From contig JAZSNU010000003.1 of the NCBI GenBank assembly GCA_045536565.1, positions 1-64,000 on the forward strand: a DNA stretch of 64,000 nucleotides. The letters run 5' to 3'. The notes under the pieces were generated by a model. That model searched no databases. It was given only the letters and a program-made list of their open reading frames with translations, and was not told the DNA's origin. Source of the stretch: Clostridia bacterium. GTDB taxonomy: Bacteria > Bacillota > Clostridia > TANB77 > CAG-465. This document shows positions 1,193-50,584 of the stretch, piece by piece (the first letter of the stretch is position 1; each line of letters opens with the position of its first letter). The translations under genes were made by a program, and so were the position numbers.

Positions 1193-1852
1193 ATGATTAT
1201 TGATATTACTTTAATATTGATAATTGCTATTGCAACTTTTATAGGATATAAAAAAGGATTTGTAAAAGTAATAATAAAACTAACAACATTAGTTTTAGCG
1301 ATTGTATTGGCATTTATTCTTCAAGGAAGCGTATCTAAGTTTATAGGGGAAAATTTAGGTTTTAAAAACACTATATCAACAGCAATAGAAAGTAAATTAG
1401 TTGGTTTTACAAAATCAGATGAAGAAGGAACTAAAAAAGAAAATCAAATACCTATTTTGGATAAGACAATAAACAATATAAATAAAGCAGCAGATGAAGA
1501 AAAACAATCTATTATAAAAAGTAGTTCTTCTAAAATAGCAGATTTTGTTGTAAAAGGCATGAGCTTTATAGTTATATTTTTAGTTGTAGCAATTACAATG
1601 GGAATAATAGGATTAATTCTTAATACAGTAGTTGAACTACCGGTTTTAAAAACATTAAACGGATTGTTTGGTGGTATTACGGAATTTGTACTAATGTTAT
1701 TTAGAATATTCATAGTTTTAGCTATAATTTCTTTCCTATCACCACTAGAATTGCTATCAAATGTGGTAGATTATATAAACGCTTCATGTATAACAAGATG
1801 GTTATTTGAAAATAATATAATTGTTAGTATAATTGGTAGAAAATTACTATAA
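1193..1852 (+). CDS. cvpA: CvpA (colicin V production) family membrane protein
   Basis: N-terminal IIDI..I...GYKKGFV signature, four TM segments, C-terminal LPVLKTLNGLFGG motif. Confidence 0.8.
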   Translation: MIIDITLILIIAIATFIGYKKGFVKVIIKLTTLVLAIVLAFILQGSVSKFIGENLGFKNTISTAIESKLVGFTKSDEEGTKKENQIPILDKTINNINKAADEEKQSIIKSSSSKIADFVVKGMSFIVIFLVVAITMGIIGLILNTVVELPVLKTLNGLFGGITEFVLMLFRIFIVLAIISFLSPLELLSNVVDYINASCITRWLFENNIIVSIIGRKLL

Positions 1853-2840: not shown

Positions 2841-4229
2841 TTATTTAAGAGTTCTTCGTGGTCTATACGCCGGATGTCTCCTTTTTGACAAATCGTCTGC
2901 ATTATACTGAACATTATTTTTCATCTTTCTTTTCTTTTTTCTAGAAGACTTAGCAAATATTTTAAATAGTATAACAAAAAATACAATTATTAATATACTG
3001 ATGAATATGTATATCAATATGTTTGATACTATTTCAGTCATTGTAAGTGGCATTTCTGAAATGTTTGTAAGAATCAGGTCAAAATCTTTATCATATAAAG
3101 AAGAGTTTTGTATAAAAGTGATAGAAATTGTACCTACTACTTGATTTATATAATCTTGTGAAGTAATATTATATTGTTTTAATTTATCATAATTTAAATT
3201 AACCTCATAAGATATATTTGGAGGCTCAGCAGTTTCGTCGCTGTTAGATAATACAAATACATTTTCTGGTATAGTATAGGTATATATTAATTTACTATCG
3301 TTATCAGAATATGAAAAACAATAATCTTGTTTTTCAAGAAGCTGAGTCTTTTCAAAATTATTAAATCCATATTCAAACAAATTAATTGCATCTGTGTATC
3401 TTAAATCTTCACTTCCAGAAGGGTTTGAATTAAATACACCTAAAATTAAGTTTTTATTATCCTTTTTTCCATATGCAAGTAAAGTTCTTCCTGCCTCTTC
3501 TGTATAGCCGGTTTTTCCACCAATACAATACTCATAATATCTTGACAAATAACTATCATCTTTTGTAAGTATTAATCTATTTGTGTTTTGATATTCTCTT
3601 TTAGTGTTTGTTTTGTTAGTTGCCTCTATCGTATATGATGATGTTGAAAAGATTTTCACAAATTCGTCATTTTTAATAGCATAAGACAATATTTTCATCA
3701 TGTCTGACGGAGTTGTATAGTGATTATCTTCATGATAACCATGAGCATTTGAAAAATGGGAATCTAAACAATTAAGTTCTTTTAATTTTTCGTTCATTAA
3801 AACAACAAAATTATCTATGTTTCCAGATACAGCTTCAGCCAGAACATTTGCAGCGTCATTACCAGATTTAAGCATTAAAGCATATAGCAAATCTTTTATA
3901 CTCATTATTTCCCCTTGCTTTAAAGCAGCATTTGAACTTCCGTAAGGTAGTTTTATAGCAGATTCTGTAACAACTGTTGAAGAGTTAATATCAAGATTTT
4001 CTAAAACCAATATTGCTGTTAAAACCTTTGTTGTACTAGCAGGATACACCCTATCATTTTCACCGTTTTCGTATAAAACTTTACCACTATCATTATCTAC
4101 TAAAATTGCATTTTTACAATTTAATTCTGGATAATTAGTTGCATGTACAAATGAAGAACTGAAAAACAAAATAGATAATGCTAAAATCAAAATTAAATTT
4201 ATTCTTTTAATAAATATATTTCTAGTCAT
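2841..4229 (-). CDS. D-alanyl-D-alanine carboxypeptidase (peptidase S11, DacA/DacB-like) with C-terminal TM anchor
   Basis: SxxK (ASTTK), SxN (SGND) and KTG (GKTGYT) motifs; signal peptide; C-terminal TM with basic tail. Confidence 0.92.
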   Translation of the reverse strand: MTRNIFIKRINLILILALSILFFSSSFVHATNYPELNCKNAILVDNDSGKVLYENGENDRVYPASTTKVLTAILVLENLDINSSTVVTESAIKLPYGSSNAALKQGEIMSIKDLLYALMLKSGNDAANVLAEAVSGNIDNFVVLMNEKLKELNCLDSHFSNAHGYHEDNHYTTPSDMMKILSYAIKNDEFVKIFSTSSYTIEATNKTNTKREYQNTNRLILTKDDSYLSRYYEYCIGGKTGYTEEAGRTLLAYGKKDNKNLILGVFNSNPSGSEDLRYTDAINLFEYGFNNFEKTQLLEKQDYCFSYSDNDSKLIYTYTIPENVFVLSNSDETAEPPNISYEVNLNYDKLKQYNITSQDYINQVVGTISITFIQNSSLYDKDFDLILTNISEMPLTMTEIVSNILIYIFISILIIVFFVILFKIFAKSSRKKKRKMKNNVQYNADDLSKRRHPAYRPRRTLK

Positions 4230-4344
4230 TAATTAATCACCCCTGTAAATAAAAATAATTATACTACATAACACTCAAAAAATAAAGGAGAGGATTAAAA
4301 TAAGTTATATAAAAAAGACCAAAATAGCAAATATAATAAAAGGT

Positions 4345-4914
4345 ATGTTAAGAAATAATGTAAAAAGTAAATATATAATTATGCTATTTCTTGTTATATT
4401 ATCCACTTTCGGAGTAATAATTTTTTGTCCTTCAAAAAACGGAGATGGAAAACTAATTATAAATGGGATAAATATACAGAATATATGCGATAAAAATAAT
4501 ATAGGGGTATATATAGATGGTGAAATAAAAAATCCTGGTTTTATACAAATACCAACAGGTGAAAATTTAGAATATGCGTTAAATAAAATAGGTGGAATAA
4601 CAGATAATGCTGATATACAAAATATAGATTTGAATAAAGTATTAAAAGATGGTGAAAAAATAATTATACCAAGTAAAATCAAAGATTATAAAGAGGATAA
4701 TACGTATAGTGATACTTTAAGTAATAGTATTGTAAATATTAATAGTGCTAGCAAGAATAAATTAAAAACATTGGAGGGAATAGGAGATAAGACAGCAGAA
4801 AATATAATAGAATATAGAAAGAAAAACAAGTTTTATAATATAGAAGAAATAATGAAAGTCAAGGGAATAGGGGAAGGTAAGTACGAAAAAATAAAAAATA
4901 ACATATGCGTATAA
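4345..4914 (+). CDS. comEA: ComEA-family DNA-binding/uptake protein
   Basis: N-terminal TM, SLBB domain (VYIDGEIKNPG), C-terminal helix-hairpin-helix pair (NINSAS...LEGIG...IIEYR...VKGIG). Confidence 0.88.
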   Translation: MLRNNVKSKYIIMLFLVILSTFGVIIFCPSKNGDGKLIINGINIQNICDKNNIGVYIDGEIKNPGFIQIPTGENLEYALNKIGGITDNADIQNIDLNKVLKDGEKIIIPSKIKDYKEDNTYSDTLSNSIVNINSASKNKLKTLEGIGDKTAENIIEYRKKNKFYNIEEIMKVKGIGEGKYEKIKNNICV

Positions 4915-41125: not shown

Positions 41126-43295
41126 AAATAGTATGAACATAGCAAAATTTAGTTTCATAAATGCTATTAAGAGCAAAGGTTTCATAATATACAACGCAAT
41201 ACTGTTAGTAGTTATACTTATTGCAACAAACTTCACGACTGTAAAAGATATTTTCCAAAGCCATGACATGTTTAAAGGTACAATATATAATGTAAAGGTG
41301 ATAGATGAACAAGGATATATTTATGAAACATTAGAAGAATCTCTTAATGTGGAAAATGTGGACAAGGTAGAAAAAATTTCTAATATTAACGAATATTCAG
41401 AAGAAGATATTAAAAAAGATGAAATAGTTGTTAAGGTGTTAGAAAAAGATTCGGAAAAATACTTGCAAATAGTATCAAAAGAATCATTAGATGGGAAAAT
41501 GTATACACTTATTTCATCTGCATTAAAAGAAGTAAGAAATCATGAGATAGAAACCAAATATGGTATTTCAGCAGAAGACATTGAAAAATACAATTCGGAT
41601 GTGTATATAGAAAAGAAAATATTAGATACAGATAGTGTTGTAAATAGCGACTATTATCTAATAAAAACTATAATGATTATGATTATATATAGTTTGATTG
41701 TTTTTGGAACGTCAGCGGTTGCATCACAAATTGCAAATGAGAAAACTTCAAAAAGTGCAGAGTATATATTTACATCAGTATCAGCAAAAGATTATTTAAA
41801 CGGAAAAGTAATAGGTGCTAATTTAAAGACAATAGCAAATATGGCTTTTATGGTTCTATATCTATTATTAGGACTTTTAGTAAACTCTGCTATTATACAA
41901 ATATTTGGAGTAAATCCAGTGCAGAATGTAAGTCCAGAAACAACTCAAATGGCTAGTATGATATTTAATATAGATCCACTTGTAATAAAATATGTGGTGT
42001 TATCATTTGTATATATATTACTTACATCAACACTGCTTTCATATATACAAGCTGCAATGACAGCTAAGGTAAAAAGCATAAATGAAATGGATAATTCTCA
42101 ATCTATTACCCTTACTCTTATTATAATTGCATATGTTGTATCATTTACAACATCAGAGTTTAATAACATATTTACTAAAATAATAGGTAATATACCTGTG
42201 TTTTCGATGTTTGCAATGCCGTCTAATTATATAAATGGTGTAACAAGTATTTGGGAAGTAGTATTATCAATTGCAATATTAGTAATATCTATCGTTATAG
42301 CAATGAAAGTAGTAAGTAAAAACTTCAAACAAGATATTCTTGATTTAGGACCAAGAAAAGAAGAAAAAAGAGATGAAAATCTTGAAATAATGGAAGAAGA
42401 ATTAAATAAAGTTAAAAAGAACAATACTAAAAGCTTTGCAACTGGCGTGTCGCTTGCACTACTTATGGTTATATTAATACAATCTGTTTTAGGAGTAGCT
42501 ATATCATTTTTAATGCCAAATTTAAGACCAAATCAAAATACAGTAGCTATGTCCATAATATTTATATTATCATTCTTAATACCAATTGTAACATTAAAAG
42601 GTATACTTAATATATCATATAACAAAAAGAATAAAGAAGAAAAGAAGGATATTAAAAAAATATTACTATGGACGATAATGGCAATTCCTGTTATGTACTT
42701 ATCTACATATATTGTTGAACTTGTAATATCAAAGATGGATATGAATCCAACAATGTTAGAAAACGCATTAGTTTTTGATAAGAGTTTATTAGGAGCTATA
42801 TTATTCTTTATAGAAATTGCAATATTACCCGCGATATTTGAAGAACTATTATTTAGAAAAGTAATGTTAGATGGTGCTAAAAAGTATGGCACGGTATTTG
42901 GGATTATATTTACAGCTGTTATGTTTGGCTTAATACATATGAATGTGCCACAAGCAATAAATGCTTTTCTTATAGGGTTAATATTTGCGTATTTAACAAT
43001 AAAAACAGGTAGTATAATTCCTGCGATGATATTACATTTATTAAATAATGGCACACAAGCGTTATTTATGATAAATGAAGGTAATATACTAGCATGTAAT
43101 ATAATATCATATGTAGATATATCACTTGTTGTTATAGGGGGATTACTTCTTGTATATAACATATTAAAAAATAAGAAAGTATTTAATATTGAGAATATAA
43201 CAAAATCAGATATAACAATAAAAGGAATACTATCAAACTATTATATGATTGTATTTATAATATTTGTAATGGTTATGTTTAAAGTTCAAATGTAG
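41112..43295 (+). CDS. ABC-2 permease (NatB/YhaP-like) fused to a CPBP/Abi intramembrane metalloprotease
   Basis: IANEKTSK..E.....V......GK permease motif; CPBP motifs FEELLFR, FGLIH and H..NN in the C-terminal part. Confidence 0.85.
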   Translation: MMINKNSMNIAKFSFINAIKSKGFIIYNAILLVVILIATNFTTVKDIFQSHDMFKGTIYNVKVIDEQGYIYETLEESLNVENVDKVEKISNINEYSEEDIKKDEIVVKVLEKDSEKYLQIVSKESLDGKMYTLISSALKEVRNHEIETKYGISAEDIEKYNSDVYIEKKILDTDSVVNSDYYLIKTIMIMIIYSLIVFGTSAVASQIANEKTSKSAEYIFTSVSAKDYLNGKVIGANLKTIANMAFMVLYLLLGLLVNSAIIQIFGVNPVQNVSPETTQMASMIFNIDPLVIKYVVLSFVYILLTSTLLSYIQAAMTAKVKSINEMDNSQSITLTLIIIAYVVSFTTSEFNNIFTKIIGNIPVFSMFAMPSNYINGVTSIWEVVLSIAILVISIVIAMKVVSKNFKQDILDLGPRKEEKRDENLEIMEEELNKVKKNNTKSFATGVSLALLMVILIQSVLGVAISFLMPNLRPNQNTVAMSIIFILSFLIPIVTLKGILNISYNKKNKEEKKDIKKILLWTIMAIPVMYLSTYIVELVISKMDMNPTMLENALVFDKSLLGAILFFIEIAILPAIFEELLFRKVMLDGAKKYGTVFGIIFTAVMFGLIHMNVPQAINAFLIGLIFAYLTIKTGSIIPAMILHLLNNGTQALFMINEGNILACNIISYVDISLVVIGGLLLVYNILKNKKVFNIENITKSDITIKGILSNYYMIVFIIFVMVMFKVQM

Positions 43296-43301
43296 AATAC
43301 A

Positions 43302-43336
43302 AAAAGAGATTAAACTGTAATAAGTTTAATCTCTTT
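43302..43336. terminator. Bidirectional intrinsic terminator
   Basis: Stem aaagagattaaact/agtttaatctcttt. Confidence 0.75.
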
Positions 43337-43340
43337 AAAA

Positions 43341-43595
43341 TTATTTGCTTAATTTTTTAGCCATATTAGCGATCTTTCTAGATGCAGTATTTCTTTTTAA
43401 TACACCTTTTGACCATGCTTTATCAACGGCACTAGATGCAGCTGTAAATAATTCATTAGCTTTTTTGTCACCGCTTTCAATAGCAGCTTCAAATGCTTTA
43501 ACAGCTTCTCTATATTCTCTTTTTATTTTTCTGTTTTCAAGAGCTTTTGTATCGTTAACTTTTACTCTTTTCTTTGCTGATTTAATGTTAGGCAA
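43341..43595 (-). CDS. rpsT: 30S ribosomal protein S20
   Basis: PNIKSAKKR...N.....D.A..KGV...N.A.RK; TTG start at 43595 after AAGGAGG. Confidence 0.95.
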   Translation of the reverse strand: MPNIKSAKKRVKVNDTKALENRKIKREYREAVKAFEAAIESGDKKANELFTAASSAVDKAWSKGVLKRNTASRKIANMAKKLSK

Positions 43596-43841
43596 TGTTT
43601 GCACCTCCTTAAGTAATCATAAAGTCATTTTTTACATCCGTTATTTTAACACATGTTTTTTTGAAAATCAAGTAATATTACATAATTTGTTGTTACTTGG
43701 GGTGAAATAATTACAAAAACCACAATTTTTTACAAAATTATTTACTTTTAAATGGTGCCGTGATATTATTGGGTAGAAGTAAAAATAGATAAGGGCAATA
43801 ATAAATTTAAGCTACAATAAACTAATTAGGAGGTAAATAAT

Positions 43842-44543
43842 ATGAAAGATAGCAAAATAATTGTTATTGAAGGTACAGATGGTAGCGGAAAACAAACTCA
43901 AACAAAACTACTCATGGAAAGACTTAAAAAAGAAGGCTATGATGTATACACTACTTCTTTTCCAAATTATGATGGTGATTCATCAGCGCTTGTAAAAATG
44001 TATTTGGCGGGTAATATAACTCCTGATGCAAATGGAGTAAGCGCAAAGGCTGCATCTATATTTTATGCAGCAGATAGATATATAACATACAAGCAGCAAA
44101 TCGAGAAAGAATATCATGAAGGAAAGACAATGGTATTTGATAGATATGTCGGATCAAATATTATTCATCAAGGCTCAAAAATCATATCTGAGTTATCTGA
44201 CGAGGATGAGAAAAAAGAAAAATTACAGCAGTTCATATCTTGGCTTGATAATTTAGAACATAATGATTTTGGAATTCCAAGAGCAGATGTTACTATTTAT
44301 CTAAGAGTACCAGTCGAATACACAATAAAACTAAGAGAAGGCAGAAATAACAAATTTACCGGAGGTGAAAAACAAGATATACATGAAGCAGATACAAATC
44401 ATTTAAAGAATGCGGGAATGTCAGGCATGATGGCAGCAGATATGCTAGGTTGGAATGTTGTAGAATGTGTAAAAGACGATTCTATGAGAACAATCGAAGA
44501 TATTGCAGAGGAAGTATATACTATTGTAAAAAATAAAATATAA
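43842..44543 (+). CDS. tmk: Thymidylate (dTMP) kinase
   Basis: IEGTDGSGKQTQ P-loop; FP.Y; YAADR; DRYVGSN; DIHE. Confidence 0.9.
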   Translation: MKDSKIIVIEGTDGSGKQTQTKLLMERLKKEGYDVYTTSFPNYDGDSSALVKMYLAGNITPDANGVSAKAASIFYAADRYITYKQQIEKEYHEGKTMVFDRYVGSNIIHQGSKIISELSDEDEKKEKLQQFISWLDNLEHNDFGIPRADVTIYLRVPVEYTIKLREGRNNKFTGGEKQDIHEADTNHLKNAGMSGMMAADMLGWNVVECVKDDSMRTIEDIAEEVYTIVKNKI

Positions 44544-44559
44544 ACAGGAGGAATTAAAA

Positions 44560-45417
44560 ATGGCAAAATGGGATAACATGTATTTAGATTTGTGCGAAAA
44601 GATTTTAAATGAAGGAGAACTTCATCATAATCGTACAGGAGATGACACATTAAGAATTCTTGGACATACTTTTGAGTTTGATTTATCAGAGGAATTTCCT
44701 ATTCTTACTGTAAAACAGGTTGGTATTAAAGGCCCTGTTATTGAACTTCTTTGGATTTATCAAGCACATAGTAATGATGTATCATGGCTTCGTGATAGAG
44801 GCGTTACTATATGGGATGAATGGGAAGTAGATAGTGACGGTGTGTATAGACAGGATGGCTCAAATAGAATGATAGGAAAAGAATTTGCAGGAACAATAGG
44901 TACAGCATATGGTTATGTGACTGGTAAGTTCGGTTGGCCTGAAAAGAATATTGAGGAGATAAAAAATAATCCAAATAGCAGAAGAAATATAATTGATCTT
45001 TGGCAACCTCAATATTTTGATACGGCGGTGCTTCCACCATGTGTATATGGTAGCCAGTTTATAGTAAGCGGTGATACTCTTCATATAAGAGTAACACAAA
45101 GATCTTGTGATGTAGGCTTGGGCCTTCCATATAATGTTACGCAGTATGCGGCGTTATGCTGTATGATTGCGCAAGTAACAGGTTTAAAACCTGGTAAGAT
45201 GCTTTATCAGATTACAGATACTCATATTTACTGTAAGCATATTCCTGCAATTAAAGAACTTATATCAAGAAGAGATAAAGCAATGCTTGCACCTAAACTT
45301 TGGCTTAATCCTGAAATTGATGATTTCTTTAAATTTGATAATTCAAAAGAACTTAAAGATATTAAGCTTATAGGATATGAACATTTAGGTAAAGTACCTA
45401 TGGAAGTATCTATCTAA
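44560..45417 (+). CDS. thyA: Thymidylate synthase
   Basis: RTG, ELLW, IWDEW, SRR, LPPC, QRSCD..LG.PYN, HIY. Confidence 0.96.
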   Translation: MAKWDNMYLDLCEKILNEGELHHNRTGDDTLRILGHTFEFDLSEEFPILTVKQVGIKGPVIELLWIYQAHSNDVSWLRDRGVTIWDEWEVDSDGVYRQDGSNRMIGKEFAGTIGTAYGYVTGKFGWPEKNIEEIKNNPNSRRNIIDLWQPQYFDTAVLPPCVYGSQFIVSGDTLHIRVTQRSCDVGLGLPYNVTQYAALCCMIAQVTGLKPGKMLYQITDTHIYCKHIPAIKELISRRDKAMLAPKLWLNPEIDDFFKFDNSKELKDIKLIGYEHLGKVPMEVSI

Positions 45418-45429
45418 GGAGGTAATAAT

Positions 45430-45930
45430 ATGGCTATAACAATTATAGCGGCTATTGGTAAAAACAGAGAACTTGGTAAAAAAGGCGACCTTATTTGGCA
45501 TATTCCGGAAGATTTAAAATATTTTAAGGAAAAGACCATGGGGAAAACAATAATAATGGGTAAAAATACTTTTAACTCATTACCTAAACTTTTGCCAGGT
45601 AGAAAACATGTGATTCTTTCAGAAGATGACGACTTTAATAAAGACATTTGTGATTCTATAGTTTTCTATAACAAAGATGATCTTATGGAATATATAAACA
45701 CAGAACTTAAAGATGAAGATGCATTTATTGTAGGTGGCGCAAGCATGTATACAATGTTTGTTGATATATGTGATAAAATGTACCTTACAAGAATAGATGC
45801 AGAAGATAAAGAGGCTGATGTGTATTTTCCAAAGTTTAATCCGGGTGATTGGTATGCTGATATGGAAAAAGAATATATATCTAGTGGAATTAGAGTAAGT
45901 CATACCCGTTGGGAAAGAAAGAATAAGTAA
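45430..45930 (+). CDS. folA: Dihydrofolate reductase
   Basis: W.IPEDL..FK..T, MG..TF.SL...LPGR, GGA..Y, D.YFP. Confidence 0.95.
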   Translation: MAITIIAAIGKNRELGKKGDLIWHIPEDLKYFKEKTMGKTIIMGKNTFNSLPKLLPGRKHVILSEDDDFNKDICDSIVFYNKDDLMEYINTELKDEDAFIVGGASMYTMFVDICDKMYLTRIDAEDKEADVYFPKFNPGDWYADMEKEYISSGIRVSHTRWERKNK

Positions 45931-45934
45931 TACA

Positions 45935-45972
45935 AAAAGAGATGCTTTAAGTGAAACAAAAGCATCTCTTTT
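45935..45972. terminator. Bidirectional intrinsic terminator (folA on +; candidate ncRNA on -)
   Basis: Stem aaaagagatgcttt/aaagcatctctttt with tracts on both sides. Confidence 0.8.
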
Positions 45973-46131
45973 CTTATACAAGTCGTATGTATTCTGTTTA
46001 AAACATACCATCTTAGGTTTAATCTATTAAGATTAAGTTACTCAAAGACTTACTTAAAAGAAGAACGATTTAACAAGGGCGGTTAAACATATTTGCGGGA
46101 AAGGAATAAATCCGCAAATGTCCTTCTTACA
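45935..46131 (-). ncRNA. Candidate ~190-nt structured small RNA (RNA2) with its own promoter
   Basis: Promoter at 46165-46137; no credible ORF; stems 46058-63/46123-28, 46091-98/46112-19, 46069-74/46082-87, 46019-25/46030-36, 45985-90/46003-08 and 45980-84/46047-51; ends at a terminator. Confidence 0.55.
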
Positions 46132-46136
46132 CTTAG

Positions 46137-46165
46137 ATAGTATACTTATTTTATAACAAAATCAA
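46137..46165 (-). promoter_or_regulatory. Sigma-A-type promoter for candidate RNA2
   Basis: Minus strand TTGATT-17 nt-TACTAT. Confidence 0.55.
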
Positions 46166-46217
46166 CTACATTTGTGTTAAATGTATATTACATAAGTGTT
46201 ACAAAAACGCTTGGCAT

Positions 46218-46520
46218 ATAAAAAGTGGTCAAATTCATGACCACTTTCGAAGGCCTAAAATACCTTCTTTTAAATTCTTAAATAGCAATCCGCCCTGATG
46301 AAAAGTTGAGAAGTTTGAGAAGCAAACTTGAAACTTTGAATCAAGGGTAGATTTGGTGTCTTTGCGATAAGAGGTTTTAATTTTTCGCTAACAAAACTAA
46401 AAATATAATTATTCTGGGTGCGAAAAATTACGGACACCAAATTAAAAATAAGTTTTAATAACATTAAAACTAGACATGTTAAAAAATCAAACTATAACAT
46501 GAATAAAATTCGATTGGTAT
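46218..46520 (-). ncRNA. Candidate RT-associated structured ncRNA (RNA1) in the 3' trailer of the RT gene
   Basis: About 300 nt of stems: 46475-81/46495-501, 46451-59/46463-71, 46351-60/46433-42 enclosing 46378-88/46420-30, a long interrupted hairpin 46293-46347 and 46249-53/46263-67; closed by terminator 46222-46247. Confidence 0.62.
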
Positions 46521-47624
46521 TTAAGAATGGATTATATCGTTGATACTTTGTTTAAACCTAACACCTGTTTTCTCTTCGTATTTTGCTATAATCATTTTTA
46601 CATATTCAGGTTCGATATACTCATAGTGTGCAACTTTACCTTGCATTTTTTGTGTTTCTTTTTTATTCCATGTTTTACCGTTTTTGTAATCCATAAGAAA
46701 ACTAAAAATTGTAGCTTTTAAAATTTGTTTGTTATTATGACCTATTGTTATATCGCCATTGCTGTTTAGCATAATTCCCGTAATCCAACAACCATTTGAA
46801 TAATATAAATCATAATATTTACACTTTTTGTTATTGAGTTTTTGAGAAGGTAAACACATATTAAGTCTAGTTATTAGTGTTTTCTTTGTATTAGTAAAAT
46901 CTCTTTTTGCTTTATACGGATTATCAAACGAAACAAATATATCATCTGCATATCTTGTGTAATGATATCTTCCCATATCGTTTGTCACATAGTAATCAAA
47001 AGGTATCATTAAAACATTACTTAGAAATGGAGAAGATGGTGCACCTTGGGCTAGACCTACTTTTCCTCCAAAATCATACATGCAAACTCTAACGATAGGT
47101 TCTAAATATGTTGTGTCTAGTACACAAAAAGGATAAACTTTTTCCATTGCAGTCATTATGCTTTCAAAAGAACAATTTCTAAAGAAATCTTTTAAGTCGT
47201 AATGTAAGATAAGTTTATTTCCTTTATGCACTTTAACAAGTTCTTTCGTATTTTTACCTGGAACATACGCATAAGAAGAACATGGGAATAGTAAATTGAA
47301 ATCATTAACAAACAAATTTACAAATCTTTTCATAAAATCCTTTAAGAATTCACAAGGCTCATCCATTCGCCGAAGACCACCAGATGATTTTCTTTTATAA
47401 TGCGTTTTATATAATTTTTCTATCGTATAGTTTTCCAGAATATGAGAAGCTTCAATTGATAAAGAATAAAATTGTTGTAATAAATATGCATTTACCTTTT
47501 CAATGTTTTTATCGCTTAATTTACTTACTATTCTGGTTTTGACAACACCGTCTGTGTCTTTTGCTGAATAAAAAAATTCTGGCCTTGGTGGAGATAATGT
47601 AATTCCCCATTCACTCGTATCCAT
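46521..47624 (-). CDS. Retron-like reverse transcriptase
   Basis: KRKSSGGLRR...P; SYAYVPGK........H; DLKDFF; GLAQGAPSSPFLSN; YTRYADD; LNNKK; ITGI (at the retron VTG position). Compact 367 aa with no maturase/endonuclease extension. Confidence 0.9.
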   Translation of the reverse strand: MDTSEWGITLSPPRPEFFYSAKDTDGVVKTRIVSKLSDKNIEKVNAYLLQQFYSLSIEASHILENYTIEKLYKTHYKRKSSGGLRRMDEPCEFLKDFMKRFVNLFVNDFNLLFPCSSYAYVPGKNTKELVKVHKGNKLILHYDLKDFFRNCSFESIMTAMEKVYPFCVLDTTYLEPIVRVCMYDFGGKVGLAQGAPSSPFLSNVLMIPFDYYVTNDMGRYHYTRYADDIFVSFDNPYKAKRDFTNTKKTLITRLNMCLPSQKLNNKKCKYYDLYYSNGCWITGIMLNSNGDITIGHNNKQILKATIFSFLMDYKNGKTWNKKETQKMQGKVAHYEYIEPEYVKMIIAKYEEKTGVRFKQSINDIIHS

Positions 47625-47681
47625 AAAATCACTTCCTTCTATAATAAATTTATTAAGAAATTTTATATATCTTACAAAATG

Positions 47682-47710
47682 ATTATACTATTACAAGGTA
47701 CAAAAATCAA
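47682..47710 (-). promoter_or_regulatory. Sigma-A promoter of the RT gene
   Basis: Minus strand TTGATT-17 nt-TATAAT, about 55 nt upstream of the ATG. Confidence 0.75.
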
Positions 47711-47746
47711 GTTTATTAAAATGATATATACAAAAAGGAATGATTT

Positions 47747-47944
47747 TTAAACCATTCCTTTAAGTTCGCTACACTCATCTGCTATTTCTTCTACGGGTTT
47801 GTATCTCCATGCATAGTCCCAGTCCCAATCGTTGTTTTTGTATAACAGAAACTTAGGTGAACAACCATCTGTGGTTACAGCATATACTTTGTATACAGTG
47901 GTATGTTTGCTAGTATCGTATTTTGATATAACTTTAAATAACAT
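47747..47944 (-). CDS. Small hypothetical protein, paralogue family member 1 (one ~50-aa domain)
   Basis: FKV....VYKVYAV.......FLLY.NN.W.W..A....P; AAAGGA RBS. Confidence 0.7.
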   Translation of the reverse strand: MLFKVISKYDTSKHTTVYKVYAVTTDGCSPKFLLYKNNDWDWDYAWRYKPVEEIADECSELKGMV

Positions 47945-47969
47945 GTTTAAAAATTCCTTTCTTTAAGTT

Positions 47970-48137
47970 TTAGTTGACTATATCGCCTAATTCAGCAGTA
48001 TCATCTACATACTCGCAATGGTCCGAATCAATCCATGAAAATGTAAAGTCCCTCCATATCAAAAAGTATGTATACCCATCATCATACCGGGTTGAAAGCA
48101 CTTTATAAATATTGTCATGATATTTAATTTTAAACAT
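47970..48137 (-). CDS. Small hypothetical protein, paralogue family member 2
   Basis: MFKI....IYKV.........FLIW....FSWIDS; ATG at 48137 after GGGAG (the track start 48209 overlaps the promoter). Confidence 0.7.
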   Translation of the reverse strand: MFKIKYHDNIYKVLSTRYDDGYTYFLIWRDFTFSWIDSDHCEYVDDTAELGDIVN

Positions 48138-48144
48138 AAATCTG

Positions 48145-48168
48145 CTCCCTTCAAAATTATTTGTTAGA
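48145..48168. repeat. 24-bp leader repeat, copy 1
   Basis: ctcccttcaaaattatttgttaga; 22/24 identical to 49769-49792. Confidence 0.7.
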
Positions 48169-48188
48169 TTTACATAAAATCTTAATAT

Positions 48189-48217
48189 ATTATATATTTT
48201 GTAGTGCAAAAAGTCAA
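48189..48217 (-). promoter_or_regulatory. Sigma-A promoter of mini-gene block A
   Basis: Minus strand TTGACT-17 nt-TATAAT. Confidence 0.75.
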
Positions 48218-48296
48218 GATTAAATGAATTAAAAGTACGGTATTTAAGTATGTTTTATGGTATACTATATAGGTATAAAAGAGGGGTAATGTTTGT

Positions 48297-49026
48297 ATGA
48301 GTATAGTTTTAGATATTTTAAGAGAACAAAAAGGAATAAAATTAAAAGGAAATATATATTATATAACACAAATTAATTTTGCATATAACAATAATAAAAT
48401 TGAAGGAGGTACTTTAACGAAAGAACAAACTAGATATATATATGAAACTAACACATTGATGTTAGAAGATGGAGAAAAGATAGCGAATGTTGATGATATA
48501 ATTGAAATGTCAAATCATTTTAAATTAGTTGATTATATGTTAGATGTCGCAGATAAAGAATTAACGGAAGATATGATTAAAGAATTCCATAGAATATTAA
48601 AATCACGGTACATCTGATGAGAGAAAAGATTGGTTTAATGTTGGAGATTACAAAAAGTTAGCTAATGAGGTGGGAGGAAATCCAACAGCAAACCCAAAAG
48701 ATGTATCTAATATGATGAAAAAAATAATAGAAGAATTTAATGCTTTGGAAAAAGTTACCGTTGTAGATATAATAAAATTTCATAATGATTTTGAAAAAAT
48801 ACATCCATTCCAAGATGGAAATGGTAGGGTAGGTCGTATTATAATGTTTAAAGAGTGTTTAAAAAATAATATAGTACCATTTATAATTCTAGACAAGGAT
48901 AAGATGTTTTATTATAGAGGACTAAAAGAATATGAAAAAGAAAAAGGATATTTAATAGATACTTGTTTAAATGCGCAAGATCAGTATCAAAAATTGTTAG
49001 ATAAGTATATAAAAGAGTTATTATAA
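48297..49026 (+). pseudogene. Fic-domain protein split by a one-base frameshift
   Basis: The N-part (NN.IEG.TLT...T) ends at 48617; the C-part carries HPFQDGNGRVGR. Skipping one base near 48606 gives a continuous ...LKS-GTSDERKDWFNVGDYKKLANEVGG... Confidence 0.8.
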
Positions 49027-49069
49027 GTAAAAAAGTATACGCCAATTAATAGCGTATACTATTTGCTTT

Positions 49070-49411
49070 TCATTCATCTAAAATGATGCATTTATCATGT
49101 GGTACACTATACCATTTTCCGTTTTTAGAAAAATAAATCACATTGAAGTTTGTTGAGTCCATAGCCGTGGAATAGTGATTATGAATGAGTTCGATTGCTT
49201 GGAAAAAAACGACTTGGTTTGTATCAATGAACCTGCATCTTCTTTGAAGTAGTTCGTCATTCGAGTATGGTATAACCTGTGCAGAATCGATCCATTTTAA
49301 TTTATTATTGACAATTGTTAAAAAGAAAATTCTTCCAAACCTTGACTCTACTGAATAAACATCATAAATTGAATTATCATCCTTCTTGTCTATTCGCTTA
49401 ACTTTAAACAT
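49070..49411 (-). CDS. Small hypothetical protein, paralogue family member 3 (probably two tandem domains)
   Basis: MFKVKR......IYDVYSV.......FL...NN.L.WIDS...P, then a diverged second copy ending IYFSKNGKWYSV. Confidence 0.7.
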   Translation of the reverse strand: MFKVKRIDKKDDNSIYDVYSVESRFGRIFFLTIVNNKLKWIDSAQVIPYSNDELLQRRCRFIDTNQVVFFQAIELIHNHYSTAMDSTNFNVIYFSKNGKWYSVPHDKCIILDE

Positions 49412-49439
49412 AAAATTTCTCCTTTTGATATAAAATAAT

Positions 49440-49760
49440 CTAGTTTGTTTCGTTTGGTGAAATTATTTCATAGATATTTGCATATACCAAATTCCACATT
49501 TTATTTTCATATATCAAATATTTTGTGGGATCGAAACTTGTTTCTTGATGAACAGCGTAAACTTTATTTATGATTTTTTTATCATCTTTTTTGGTTATCT
49601 CGAATAATTCTTTACATTGTGGTTTGAAATTATTGGCATCGACCCAACAAAAAATTTTATCATTTTTATTGTATACCAAGAATAAAGGACAAGTGTGACT
49701 AGGTCTTATCTCATAAACAGTATAGATTTCTTTGTTATTGATTCGCTGAACAGTTAACAT
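49440..49760 (-). CDS. Small hypothetical protein, paralogue family member 4 (two tandem domains)
   Basis: IYTVYEI.......FLVY......F.WVDA..F.P and KVYAV........YLIYEN..W..V.A; ATG at 49760 after AAGGAG. Confidence 0.7.
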   Translation of the reverse strand: MLTVQRINNKEIYTVYEIRPSHTCPLFLVYNKNDKIFCWVDANNFKPQCKELFEITKKDDKKIINKVYAVHQETSFDPTKYLIYENKMWNLVYANIYEIISPNETN

Positions 49761-49768
49761 TTTATTTT

Positions 49769-49792
49769 CTCCTTTCAAAATTATTTTTTAGA
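49769..49792. repeat. 24-bp leader repeat, copy 2
   Basis: ctcctttcaaaattattttttaga; 22/24 identical to 48145-48168. Confidence 0.7.
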
Positions 49793-49814
49793 CTAAATGT
49801 TCAAATTTAGCTAT

Positions 49815-49843
49815 ATTATATCATATGTTTAGATAATTGTAAA
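49815..49843 (-). promoter_or_regulatory. Sigma-A promoter of mini-gene block B
   Basis: Minus strand TTTACA-17 nt-TATAAT with extended -10 TG. Confidence 0.65.
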
Positions 49844-49905
49844 TGACAAATGTTACAAAAATATTACAAAGTATAAAAATATGCTAATTTTTTGGGCAAA
49901 AACAC

Positions 49906-49934
49906 TTGATTTTTTACTTTTTATAGTTTATAAT
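49906..49934 (+). promoter_or_regulatory. Promoter of the S10 ribosomal protein operon
   Basis: TTGATT-17 nt-TATAAT. Confidence 0.75.
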
Positions 49935-49940
49935 ATGAGT

Positions 49941-50150
49941 ATTGATTTGCGTAGAAGTGGGATGTGGCTATCCTGAGAGATAGGGAACTTCCATGGAGCA
50001 TGTCTGATTTAAAATCGGGCGGCAAGTATATAATTTGTATTTGCCAAATTTAAAAACTGTTATTTAGATTTGGCTTTCTTTACGGATTAGTTACGAAACA
50101 CACGGGGTAGTGTAAAACTTGCGAGTCCTTGAAATCATAGTAAAGGAGAG
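49941..50150 (+). promoter_or_regulatory. Structured 5' leader of rpsJ (candidate ribosomal-protein leader)
   Basis: About 210-nt GC-enriched UTR with hairpins ctatc/gatag, ctgattt/aaatcgg, ggcaagtata/tgtatttgcc and gccaaattt/agatttggc. Confidence 0.55.
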
Positions 50151-50156
50151 ATAAAA

Positions 50157-50474
50157 ATGGCAAAAACAAATGTATCTAAAATGAGAATAAGATTAAAAGC
50201 TTATGATCACGTAGTGCTAGAGCAAACAGCATCTAAGATAGTTGACGTGGCTAAAAATTCTGGAGCAGCAGTTTCTGGTCCAATTCCACTACCAACTAAA
50301 AAGGAAATCATAACAATCTTACGTAGTCCTCACAAACACAAAGATTCAAGAGAACAATTTGAAATGAGAACTCACAAAAGAGTTATCGATGTTGTAGCAC
50401 CAAACCAAGCAACAGTTGATGCGTTAATGGCAATAGATATGCCAGCTGGTGTTGAAATCGAAGTTAAACTTTAA
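50157..50474 (+). CDS. rpsJ: 30S ribosomal protein S10
   Basis: [28 protein letters not shown]. Confidence 0.98.
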
Positions 50475-50584
50475 TAATATTTAGTAGTCATCCTGAATAG
50501 TTCAGGCAAGTGACATACCCTATACTAAATATGGCATAAAAGAATAACTTAAAAGTTTAGAGTATTTAAAAGGGAGGAAAAAAC

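Follow-up and report, generated by a model that had tools for sequence, protein, structure and literature searches.

A retron-like reverse transcriptase gene followed by a structured RNA of msr-msd-like anatomy in a Clostridia bacterium

The reverse transcriptase gene and the RNA on its 3' side

The DNA analysed here (hereafter the window) is a stretch of 64,000 nt from a Clostridia bacterium, positions 1 to 64,000 of contig JAZSNU010000003.1 in assembly GCA_045536565.1. The element of interest is a gene for a reverse transcriptase (RT) of the retron type on the reverse strand, together with a structured non-coding RNA (ncRNA), RNA1, which lies on the 3' side of the gene and starts within its last codons. 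We consider it probable that the locus is a minimal, order-permuted and apparently effector-less retron, rare and natural. In 5' to 3' order on the reverse strand the features are as follows.

47682-47710 (-): sigma-70-like promoter of the RT/ncRNA transcript, TTGATT-17-TATAAT; from a consensus scan, 10/12 positions, a consensus match only
46521-47624 (-): retron-type reverse transcriptase, 367 aa, YADD motif; open reading frame (ORF) with matches to profiles and to relatives of solved structure
46512-46528 (-): a1 arm, ATTCTTAAATACCAATC, overlapping the last RT codons and the TAA stop (46523-46521); top long-range inverted repeat
46511 (-): candidate branching G (priming 2'-OH), first base past a1 and 10 nt past the stop; inferred from position
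46475-46501 (-): hairpin A of the putative msr region, varying between loci; minimum free energy (MFE) structure
46451-46471 (-): hairpin B, 9-bp stem and 3-nt loop, AAUGUYAUU core, the proposed msr hairpin for recognition by the RT; present in 7/7 loci, covariation
46351-46442 (-): hairpin C, with a 6-bp core UUUCGC/GCGAAA at 46425-46420 and 46388-46383
46292-46347 (-): hairpin D, proposed msd template stem-loop; MFE structure, adjoining a2 as msd does in retrons
46291 (-): G opposite the candidate branching G, final base ahead of a2; helix reading and MFE rule
46274-46290 (-): a2 arm, GATTGCTATTTAAGAAT; inverted repeat, MFE
46216-46247 (-): intrinsic terminator closing the RT-ncRNA unit, 10-bp stem, 6-nt loop and T run; direct reading and fold

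The RT reading frame (47624-46521) is uninterrupted, and YADD, QGAPSSP and ITG are all present. The protein matches Pfam RVT_1 (E 1.4e-14), and the PADLOC retron profiles span residues ~60-353 (RT_II-A 1.5e-47, RT_I-A 4e-38). A word-indexed protein search gave 29 proteins at E <= 0.001, of which 16 including the query scored at least 225 bits; the other 15 of that set are 33-77% identical to the query and lie mostly on contigs of 1-4 kb. The family alignment was built from 15 of the 16 sequences, the 208-aa fragment P0003 being left out, and all 15 match retron RT profiles with RT_II-A as the best (best E 3.9e-54). Both aspartates of YADD (D227 and D228) are invariant in this alignment, and so is the G (G283) of the ITG triplet, which aligns under the VTG of Ec78; the VTG triplet and an NAxxH motif are described as retron-specific marks of the RT (PMC7736814). 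The closest relatives of solved structure are the RTs of Ec78/Ec83 and 'St85 family' chains (E ~1e-21, residues 67-350), while the nearest annotated relatives are plasmid proteins named 'retron St85 family' RT with 26-28% identity. The sole extra part is a stretch of ~45 N-terminal residues; longer or fused relatives were not found, which is weak evidence on that point. The NCBIfam models Drt2 (39.3 bits, cut-off 390), Drt3a (51.5, cut-off 200) and group_II_RT_mat (54.3, cut-off 300) all stay far under their cut-offs, and by curated thresholds the RT is not a member of any named family. Judged by its profile matches and solved relatives, it is a retron-lineage RT closest to the I-A/II-A group, in agreement with the first-pass annotation made from the letters alone, which had called it retron-like.

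That annotation had also given the RT a promoter of its own and seen no room for an upstream ncRNA, and both points are borne out. The -10 box of the promoter ends 57 nt ahead of the RT ATG, and the gap between the ATG and the preceding ORF measures just 122 nt (47625-47746) with a weak fold, no better than chance (z -1.6).

On the other side of the gene, the ~590 nt of structured non-coding DNA claimed earlier stand out clearly from shuffled sequence. Positions 46525-45930 (-) have a folding energy of -153.8 kcal/mol, compared with a mean of -102.2 +/- 6.6 in dinucleotide shuffles (z -7.8), and none of 100 shuffles was as good. The claim of two consecutive units, each closed by a terminator, agrees with two hairpin-plus-T-run terminators that can be read directly (46247-46216 and ~45976-45937); neither was listed by the consensus terminator scan, whose four matches in the region lay elsewhere. 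RNA1, the unit next to the gene, exists as described, with its start moved from 46520 to 46528, within the last RT codons. It covers 46528-46274 (-), 255 nt, with its parts in the order a1-A-B-C-D-a2. Co-transcription with the RT, called probable at first pass, we grade as very probable.

The msr-msd RNA of retrons is described as having hybridising terminal repeats, one to three short msr hairpins, a 3' msd stem-loop and two opposing G (PMC7736814; 10.1101/2024.07.21.604473). RNA1 shows all four parts and hence looks like a retron msr-msd. The a1/a2 stem stays in the MFE structure with a pairing probability of ~1.0 when 60 nt are added on each side. Stems of 7-10 bp and loops of 3-10 nt are quoted for msr hairpins (10.1101/2024.07.21.604473), and hairpin B with its 9 bp and 3 nt falls inside this range. 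Around the core of hairpin C lies an outer stem of 5 bp that covaries (46430-46426 with 46382-46378), while hairpin D differs among loci in both length and sequence. A small ORF opened by an AUG in the hairpin B loop is not conserved, being 64 aa in the window, 4 codons in L011 and 8 in L013, and the loop of L103 is without the AUG.

Conservation and variation of the RNA among related loci

Seven loci of the family were compared, namely the window, L011-L015 from metagenome-assembled genomes labelled Clostridia or Bacilli (36-46% identity) and the metagenome locus L103 (36%). The RT is followed by 360-570 nt free of ORFs in the window, L011, L013, L014, L015 and L103, and in all family loci the ncRNA unit is closed by a terminator on the RT strand. 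The ncRNA segments fold with z from -4.2 to -6.8 in 7/7 loci. For the gaps upstream of the RT z lies between -0.4 and -3.0 except in L013, where the upstream stretch holds a gene end and two terminators.

Hairpin B is present in all seven loci with the core AAUGUYAUU, which in L103 reads AAUUUCAUU. In the seven-sequence alignment of its 9-bp stem 62 of 63 cells are paired, and five of the nine pairs are changed on both sides. The covariation score was reached by none of 500 shuffles and the count of doubly changed pairs by 27 of 500; sliding the partner strand by 1-3 columns lowers the pairing to 18-51%. As the pairing includes G-U pairs, and as the covariance model of the hairpin scores higher on the RT strand (35.6 bits vs 20.4 on the opposite strand), the RNA would be read from the RT strand. 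The 6-bp core of hairpin C, UUU[U/C]G[C/U] with [G/A]C[A/G]AAA, is found 27-33 nt past hairpin B in six of the seven loci, with compensatory changes at two core positions and covarying outer pairs; the L012 version is imperfect. These occurrences were counted by script because MAFFT failed on the stretch from B to C, where loop lengths differ. Conservation of the downstream RNA among homologous loci, proposed at first pass as the check to make, is thus seen in a covarying hairpin B throughout and a hairpin C at fixed spacing in all loci but one.

The a1/a2 pair is the top-scoring inverted repeat in four of the seven loci and ranks fourth in L015. With 60-nt flanks the stem is kept in the MFE structure of every locus, with a probability of ~1.0 in six and 0.74 in L011. 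To read the opposing bases we applied a blind rule, in which the last pair of the terminal MFE stem is taken and the next base on each side is read; it gives a G on both sides in 4/7 loci, where the G content of the RNAs is just 12-21%. With the helices read by eye, the two opposing G are seen in 7/7 loci. The 5' G sits 3-10 nt past the RT stop in 6/6 loci with a downstream RNA, hence a1 always covers the last RT codons.

General similarity searches add little to this picture. Comparison of the 596-nt flank with the other loci by nhmmer gave no match, and blastn gave weak matches only; among RT loci the best was in L015, with 76% across 55 nt. Outside its seven training loci the hairpin B model finds no convincing copy in 59 sources with phage-clade loci among them, where the next best match is 24.6 bits (E 0.041) at window positions 1265-1307, nor in the rest of the genome or in a type I-A reference locus. 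A DNA pattern of hairpins B and C matches the genome contigs 25 times, twice beside a family RT (L013 and L015, known already), and the remaining 23, with no family RT beside them, look like chance and were rejected as further copies. RNA duplex folding of long flanks was likewise discarded, as it gave meaningless, loop-ridden duplexes. In L011 the putative msd (~1580-1720) holds tandem units of ~45 nt (AAATTTRAACTTCGTTCAAAGGTGTTTT...) and is much longer than that of the window.

The RNA lies 3' of the RT in six of the seven loci and upstream in one, L012, and the standard msr-msd position, immediately upstream of the RT in one transcript, does not occur in these seven. In L012 the ncRNA (3402-3690) stands before the RT and has an extended -10 element and a terminator to itself; the RT that comes next is served by another promoter and a ribosome-binding site. 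The a1 arm of L012 resembles the 3' coding end of the L015 RT, and a search upstream of the L012 ncRNA found no remnant of an RT gene. One idea is that the L012 order (ncRNA, terminator, promoter, RT; 3300-3860) is a circular permutation of the common order.

A sister clade of phage RTs (L016, L017, L023-L040, L104-L108; from IMG/VR and metagenomes) has 28-35% identity and 344-397 aa, and shares with the window RT the N-terminal extension and a similar length. Its members stand mostly behind a conserved ORF of 217-246 aa, with a gap of 280-470 nt ahead of the RT, and the hairpin B model finds nothing in them. At four of 14 such loci the top upstream inverted repeat has a G on either flank and stops 5-20 nt short of the RT start, as in the standard order; from these repeats the ncRNA of the sister clade appears to be in the standard upstream position. 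Since the sister clade appears to have the standard order, the downstream position looks derived within a small clade. The 217-246 aa ORF has a Rossmann-like 'GVGAIGS' N-terminus, and an ORF of ~140-165 aa follows the RT.

The family is rare. Among 1.84 billion representatives, searched exhaustively, 210 proteins reach E <= 1e-30 and ~20 score above 195 bits, and the RT is absent from all five other genomes of the same genus (97-100% complete). Scanning the genome contigs with the single protein gave no relative; the alignment-based scan then found L011-L015.

Variation between strains was followed by comparing contigs from public DNA runs with positions 46150-47750, for which the difference table lists part of all differences. 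One 8.6-kb contig covers this stretch completely and shows 74 differences over 1601 nt (~95% identical). Among 32 listed RT differences 24 are synonymous and 8 non-synonymous, and judged by these counts purifying selection acts on the RT. For the 255-nt RNA this contig has, among the changes listed, two substitutions and one 2-nt insertion, all at positions unpaired in the MFE structure. A 548-nt piece from a second run has 13 differences in 46150-46697, ten of them listed; therefore at most five can fall in the RNA. Another study has, in two of its runs, a contig that connects 46294 with 46438 and in which 147 unrelated letters replace 143; this exchanges hairpins C and D and keeps hairpin B, a2, the terminator and the island junction described below; the RT gene of this lineage has ~82% DNA identity. 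A conserved recognition part beside a swappable template part is what would be expected of msr and msd.

Neighbouring genes, the variable island and RNA2

An effector gene common to the seven loci was not found; the neighbours are unrelated housekeeping genes. The cassette lies beside dihydrofolate reductase (DHFR) in the window, and elsewhere beside PAP2 and MarR, an unknown secreted-looking protein, an aminotransferase and a transfer RNA (tRNA), a G5-SLT protein and LemA, or a HAD hydrolase, a tRNA and DUF5050. Genes for a PtuA-like ATPase or PtuB-like HNH protein are absent beside the RT in all seven loci, and no nucleoside deoxyribosyltransferase (NDT)-like effector stands beside it in any of them. 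Because the neighbours are unrelated, none of the other RT loci has the small ORFs seen in the window and no fusions were found, the conserved unit consists of promoter, RT, msr-msd and terminator (~1.5 kb). The first-pass annotation had seen no obvious cognate effector, and with nothing shared by the neighbours of seven loci we come to the same result. tRNA genes adjoin the cassette in two of the seven loci (L014 3653-3725 (-), L103 4505-4577 (-)); these may be integration sites, and no integrase was seen.

In the window the RT cassette forms the left end of a 3.6-kb variable island, 46207-49849, with the left junction at ~46206. Homology to the congeners runs from thyA-folA to ~46206 and resumes at ~49849 before the S10 leader. 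The congener G004 has only 78 nt between the island flanks, while G005 has a different 1.7-kb insert plus a Fic gene, and a short contig of run X1 departs from the window at 46204, which fits a variant lacking the island. The other genes of the island are as follows.

48297-48617 and 48670-49026 (+): Fic-domain gene with the motif HPFQDGNGRVGR in two consecutive ORFs; PADLOC PDC-S04 match
47747-47944, 47970-48209, 49070-49411 and 49440-49778 (-): four small ORFs of 65, 79, 113 and 112 aa; ORF calls

The Fic ORFs match positions 5-104 and 126-238 of the candidate-defence profile PDC-S04, which has 244. In the RT-less congener G005 the gene is likewise split over two ORFs (L188 750-1067 and 1087-1473) at 79% DNA identity, and this state is either a shared disruption or a normal two-part arrangement. 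The four small ORFs have a weak likeness to each other (26-37% identity, E 5e-5 to 5e-3), form two promoter-terminator units and have no Pfam, PADLOC or PHROG match.

Beyond the island junction lies the second unit, RNA2 (~45935-46165 (-)). It measures ~200 nt, lies antisense in the space that separates folA from the S10 operon, and has a strong terminator and a TTGATT promoter of its own. The conserved block 45914-46207, which holds RNA2 with promoter and terminator, is 74-87% identical in 5/5 RT-less congeners, where RNA2 stands directly beside the S10 leader, and RNA2 itself, with 79-86% identity in these five, is single-copy in all six genomes of the genus. Its alignment fold has conserved helices with seven doubly changed pairs. 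Beyond the genus BLAST found nothing but one 26-nt match in G035, and Rfam gave no match. By this distribution RNA2 is a genus-level small-RNA candidate and not part of the RT system, and the earlier suggestion that RNA1 and RNA2 make up a bipartite RNA fails, as RNA2 is kept in five of five congeners without the RT. It is hardly credible that both serve one new RT system, for although they are adjacent, on the same strand and each ended by a terminator, the island junction at ~46206 separates them and RNA2-like sequence occurs in none of the six other RT loci. On the far side of the island an S10-Clostridia ribosomal protein leader (RF03136, 49944-50025 (+), 38.9 bits, gathering 35.1) precedes rpsJ.

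Proposed mechanism, alternatives and known systems

Further we propose how the locus might work. The promoter at 47710-47682 would drive a single transcript with the RT ORF and the msr-msd (46528-46274), ending at the terminator 46247-46216. Within it the 17-nt a1, which covers the last RT codons and the stop, would pair with a2 220 nt downstream, and G46511 would thereby face G46291 where the stem ends on its inner side. The RT would recognise hairpins B and C as the msr part, prime from the 2'-OH of G46511 and copy stem-loop D, perhaps with part of C, and the product would be a branched multicopy single-stranded DNA (msDNA) of several tens of nucleotides. Its most likely role would be phage defence or exclusion by the RT-msDNA complex, with a factor encoded elsewhere or with none. 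What the sequences show is the family of the RT, the conservation, covariation, anatomy and position of the RNA, the lack of a neighbour gene common to the loci, and purifying selection; co-transcription, the branch priming at G46511, the extent of the complementary DNA (cDNA) and the biological role we infer.

The first-pass annotation had proposed an RT-ncRNA system of an undescribed kind. The downstream RNA and the missing effector stand, while the RNA is neither of unknown kind nor bipartite; because RNA1 has msr-msd anatomy and RNA2 belongs to the core genome, a permuted retron is suggested instead.

Several observations weigh against this interpretation. The Rfam msr model RF00170 has no match at E <= 1 in window positions 43000-50500 and none at E <= 0.01 in the other six loci, while giving 79.9 bits in the type I-A reference locus L195 as a positive control; as it matches none of them, the RNA1-type RNAs would be an RNA family of their own. 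At the retron NAxxH position the RT has LVKVH under the NAAAH of Ec78, with H alone kept, and its 166.3 bits against NCBIfam retron_St85_RT do not reach the cut-off of 235. Retrons are described as RT, ncRNA and effector (Mestre 2020; PMC12548924), and an effector-less locus departs from this make-up. The covariation comes from just seven loci. Visual inspection served to place the a1/a2 arms of L011 and L013, and likewise the G.G mismatch of the three loci where the blind rule does not give a G on both sides; in these three the mismatch lies just inside the MFE terminal stem. When perfect helices with a G on either flank were sought blindly, the outcome was no better than with shuffles, because the helices adjoining the G.G are only 3-7 bp.

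The description of retrons as three-part systems suggests a standard retron whose effector is not adjacent, being encoded elsewhere, hidden as an unrecognised neighbour that is small or variable, or supplied by a host housekeeping protein, with the RT-msDNA complex acting as antitoxin or sensor. The window cassette does share its island with the PDC-S04 Fic gene and four orphan small ORFs. However, the seven loci have no neighbour in common, the Fic gene is also present in RT-less G005 and split in both genomes, the small ORFs are missing at the other RT loci, and an effector fused to the RT is opposed by the failure to find longer RT forms, weak evidence as this is. We regard such an effector as rather unlikely.

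A bolder form of the preferred retron reading takes the absence of an effector at face value. The retron would be self-sufficient and effector-free, its msDNA synthesis coupled in cis to translation of the RT, and its swappable msd under diversifying selection. A terminating ribosome would cover a1, so that the stem could form only afterwards, beside the freshly made RT. The L012 order hints, further, that the 1.5-kb cassette may move via a circular intermediate. The whole of this combination seems unlikely to us; if true, the msd, exchanged between strains with hairpin B and a2 kept, would be a swappable specificity cassette under diversifying selection.

It is also conceivable, if quite improbable, that the downstream RNA templates concatemeric or unbranched cDNA, and not branched msDNA, as in defence-associated RT (DRT) systems. 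A functional ncRNA 3' of an RT gene has been documented for DRT3, and the Rfam msr model fails on RNA1. Yet the RT scores far under the DRT cut-offs (51.5/200 bits for Drt3a, 39.3/390 for Drt2), retron profiles cover it end to end, and the closing stem with opposing G that the RNA carries is retron-specific.

Very improbable, in our view, is that the downstream structure is a mere 3' untranslated region (UTR) serving as stabiliser or terminator region, or that the cassette is a decaying relic. The rarity of the element, with ~20 representatives above 195 bits in 1.84 billion proteins, would suit such explanations, but sequence, pairing and spacing of hairpins B and C are kept across proteins of 35-46% identity. 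In L012 the RNA stands apart, upstream of the RT and ended by a terminator of its own, which makes no sense for a 3' UTR element, and purifying selection on the RT speaks against a relic.

Placing the ncRNA upstream is called standard or frequent in the retron literature (10.1101/2024.01.25.577267 and reviews). The literature searched gave no description of a natural retron with a downstream msr-msd; the supplements of Mestre 2020, which assign an ncRNA to each RT, might record cases. If the locus is what we propose, it would be a very compact retron of ~1.5 kb and a test case for retron function without a dedicated toxin. Surveys limited to the sequence upstream of retron RTs can overlook the cognate RNA.

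Among known systems retron I-A (Ec78/Ec83) has the closest solved and annotated RTs (E ~1e-21; 26-28% identity to plasmid copies), and shares YADD, a thumb-like C-terminal region and terminal inverted repeats that close the ncRNA. The plasmid reference L195 has msr (RF00170, 3246-3310), msd, RT (3432-4367), PtuA and PtuB in this order. In the window, by contrast, the RNA follows the RT, RF00170 does not match, PtuA and PtuB are missing and the RT has ~45 extra N-terminal residues. Retron II-A (Sen2/St85, Eco1) gives the best PADLOC profile for all 15 family members (RT_II-A); unlike it, the window has no adjacent nucleoside deoxyribosyltransferase-like effector, stays under the St85 model cut-off and carries its ncRNA downstream. 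DRT3, with its UG3 and UG8 RTs, resembles the window in having a structured, RT-required ncRNA downstream, and differs, as described, by another RT class, two RT genes and an RNA without an a1/a2 stem and branching G.

Judged by its sequence, then, the locus keeps the hallmark RNA anatomy of retrons but has it in the 3' UTR of the RT, over the stop codon and without a recognisable effector. The nearest likeness in layout is with engineered operons of 'inverted architecture' (promoter, RT, ncRNA), which were built to test RT-DNA production (10.1101/2024.01.25.577267) and have the same order as the window in one transcript. Those operons are synthetic and made for standardisation, whereas here the order is natural, occurs in six of seven loci and has a1 overlapping the RT stop; if our interpretation is true, the locus offers a natural precedent for the RT-then-ncRNA layout of the engineers.

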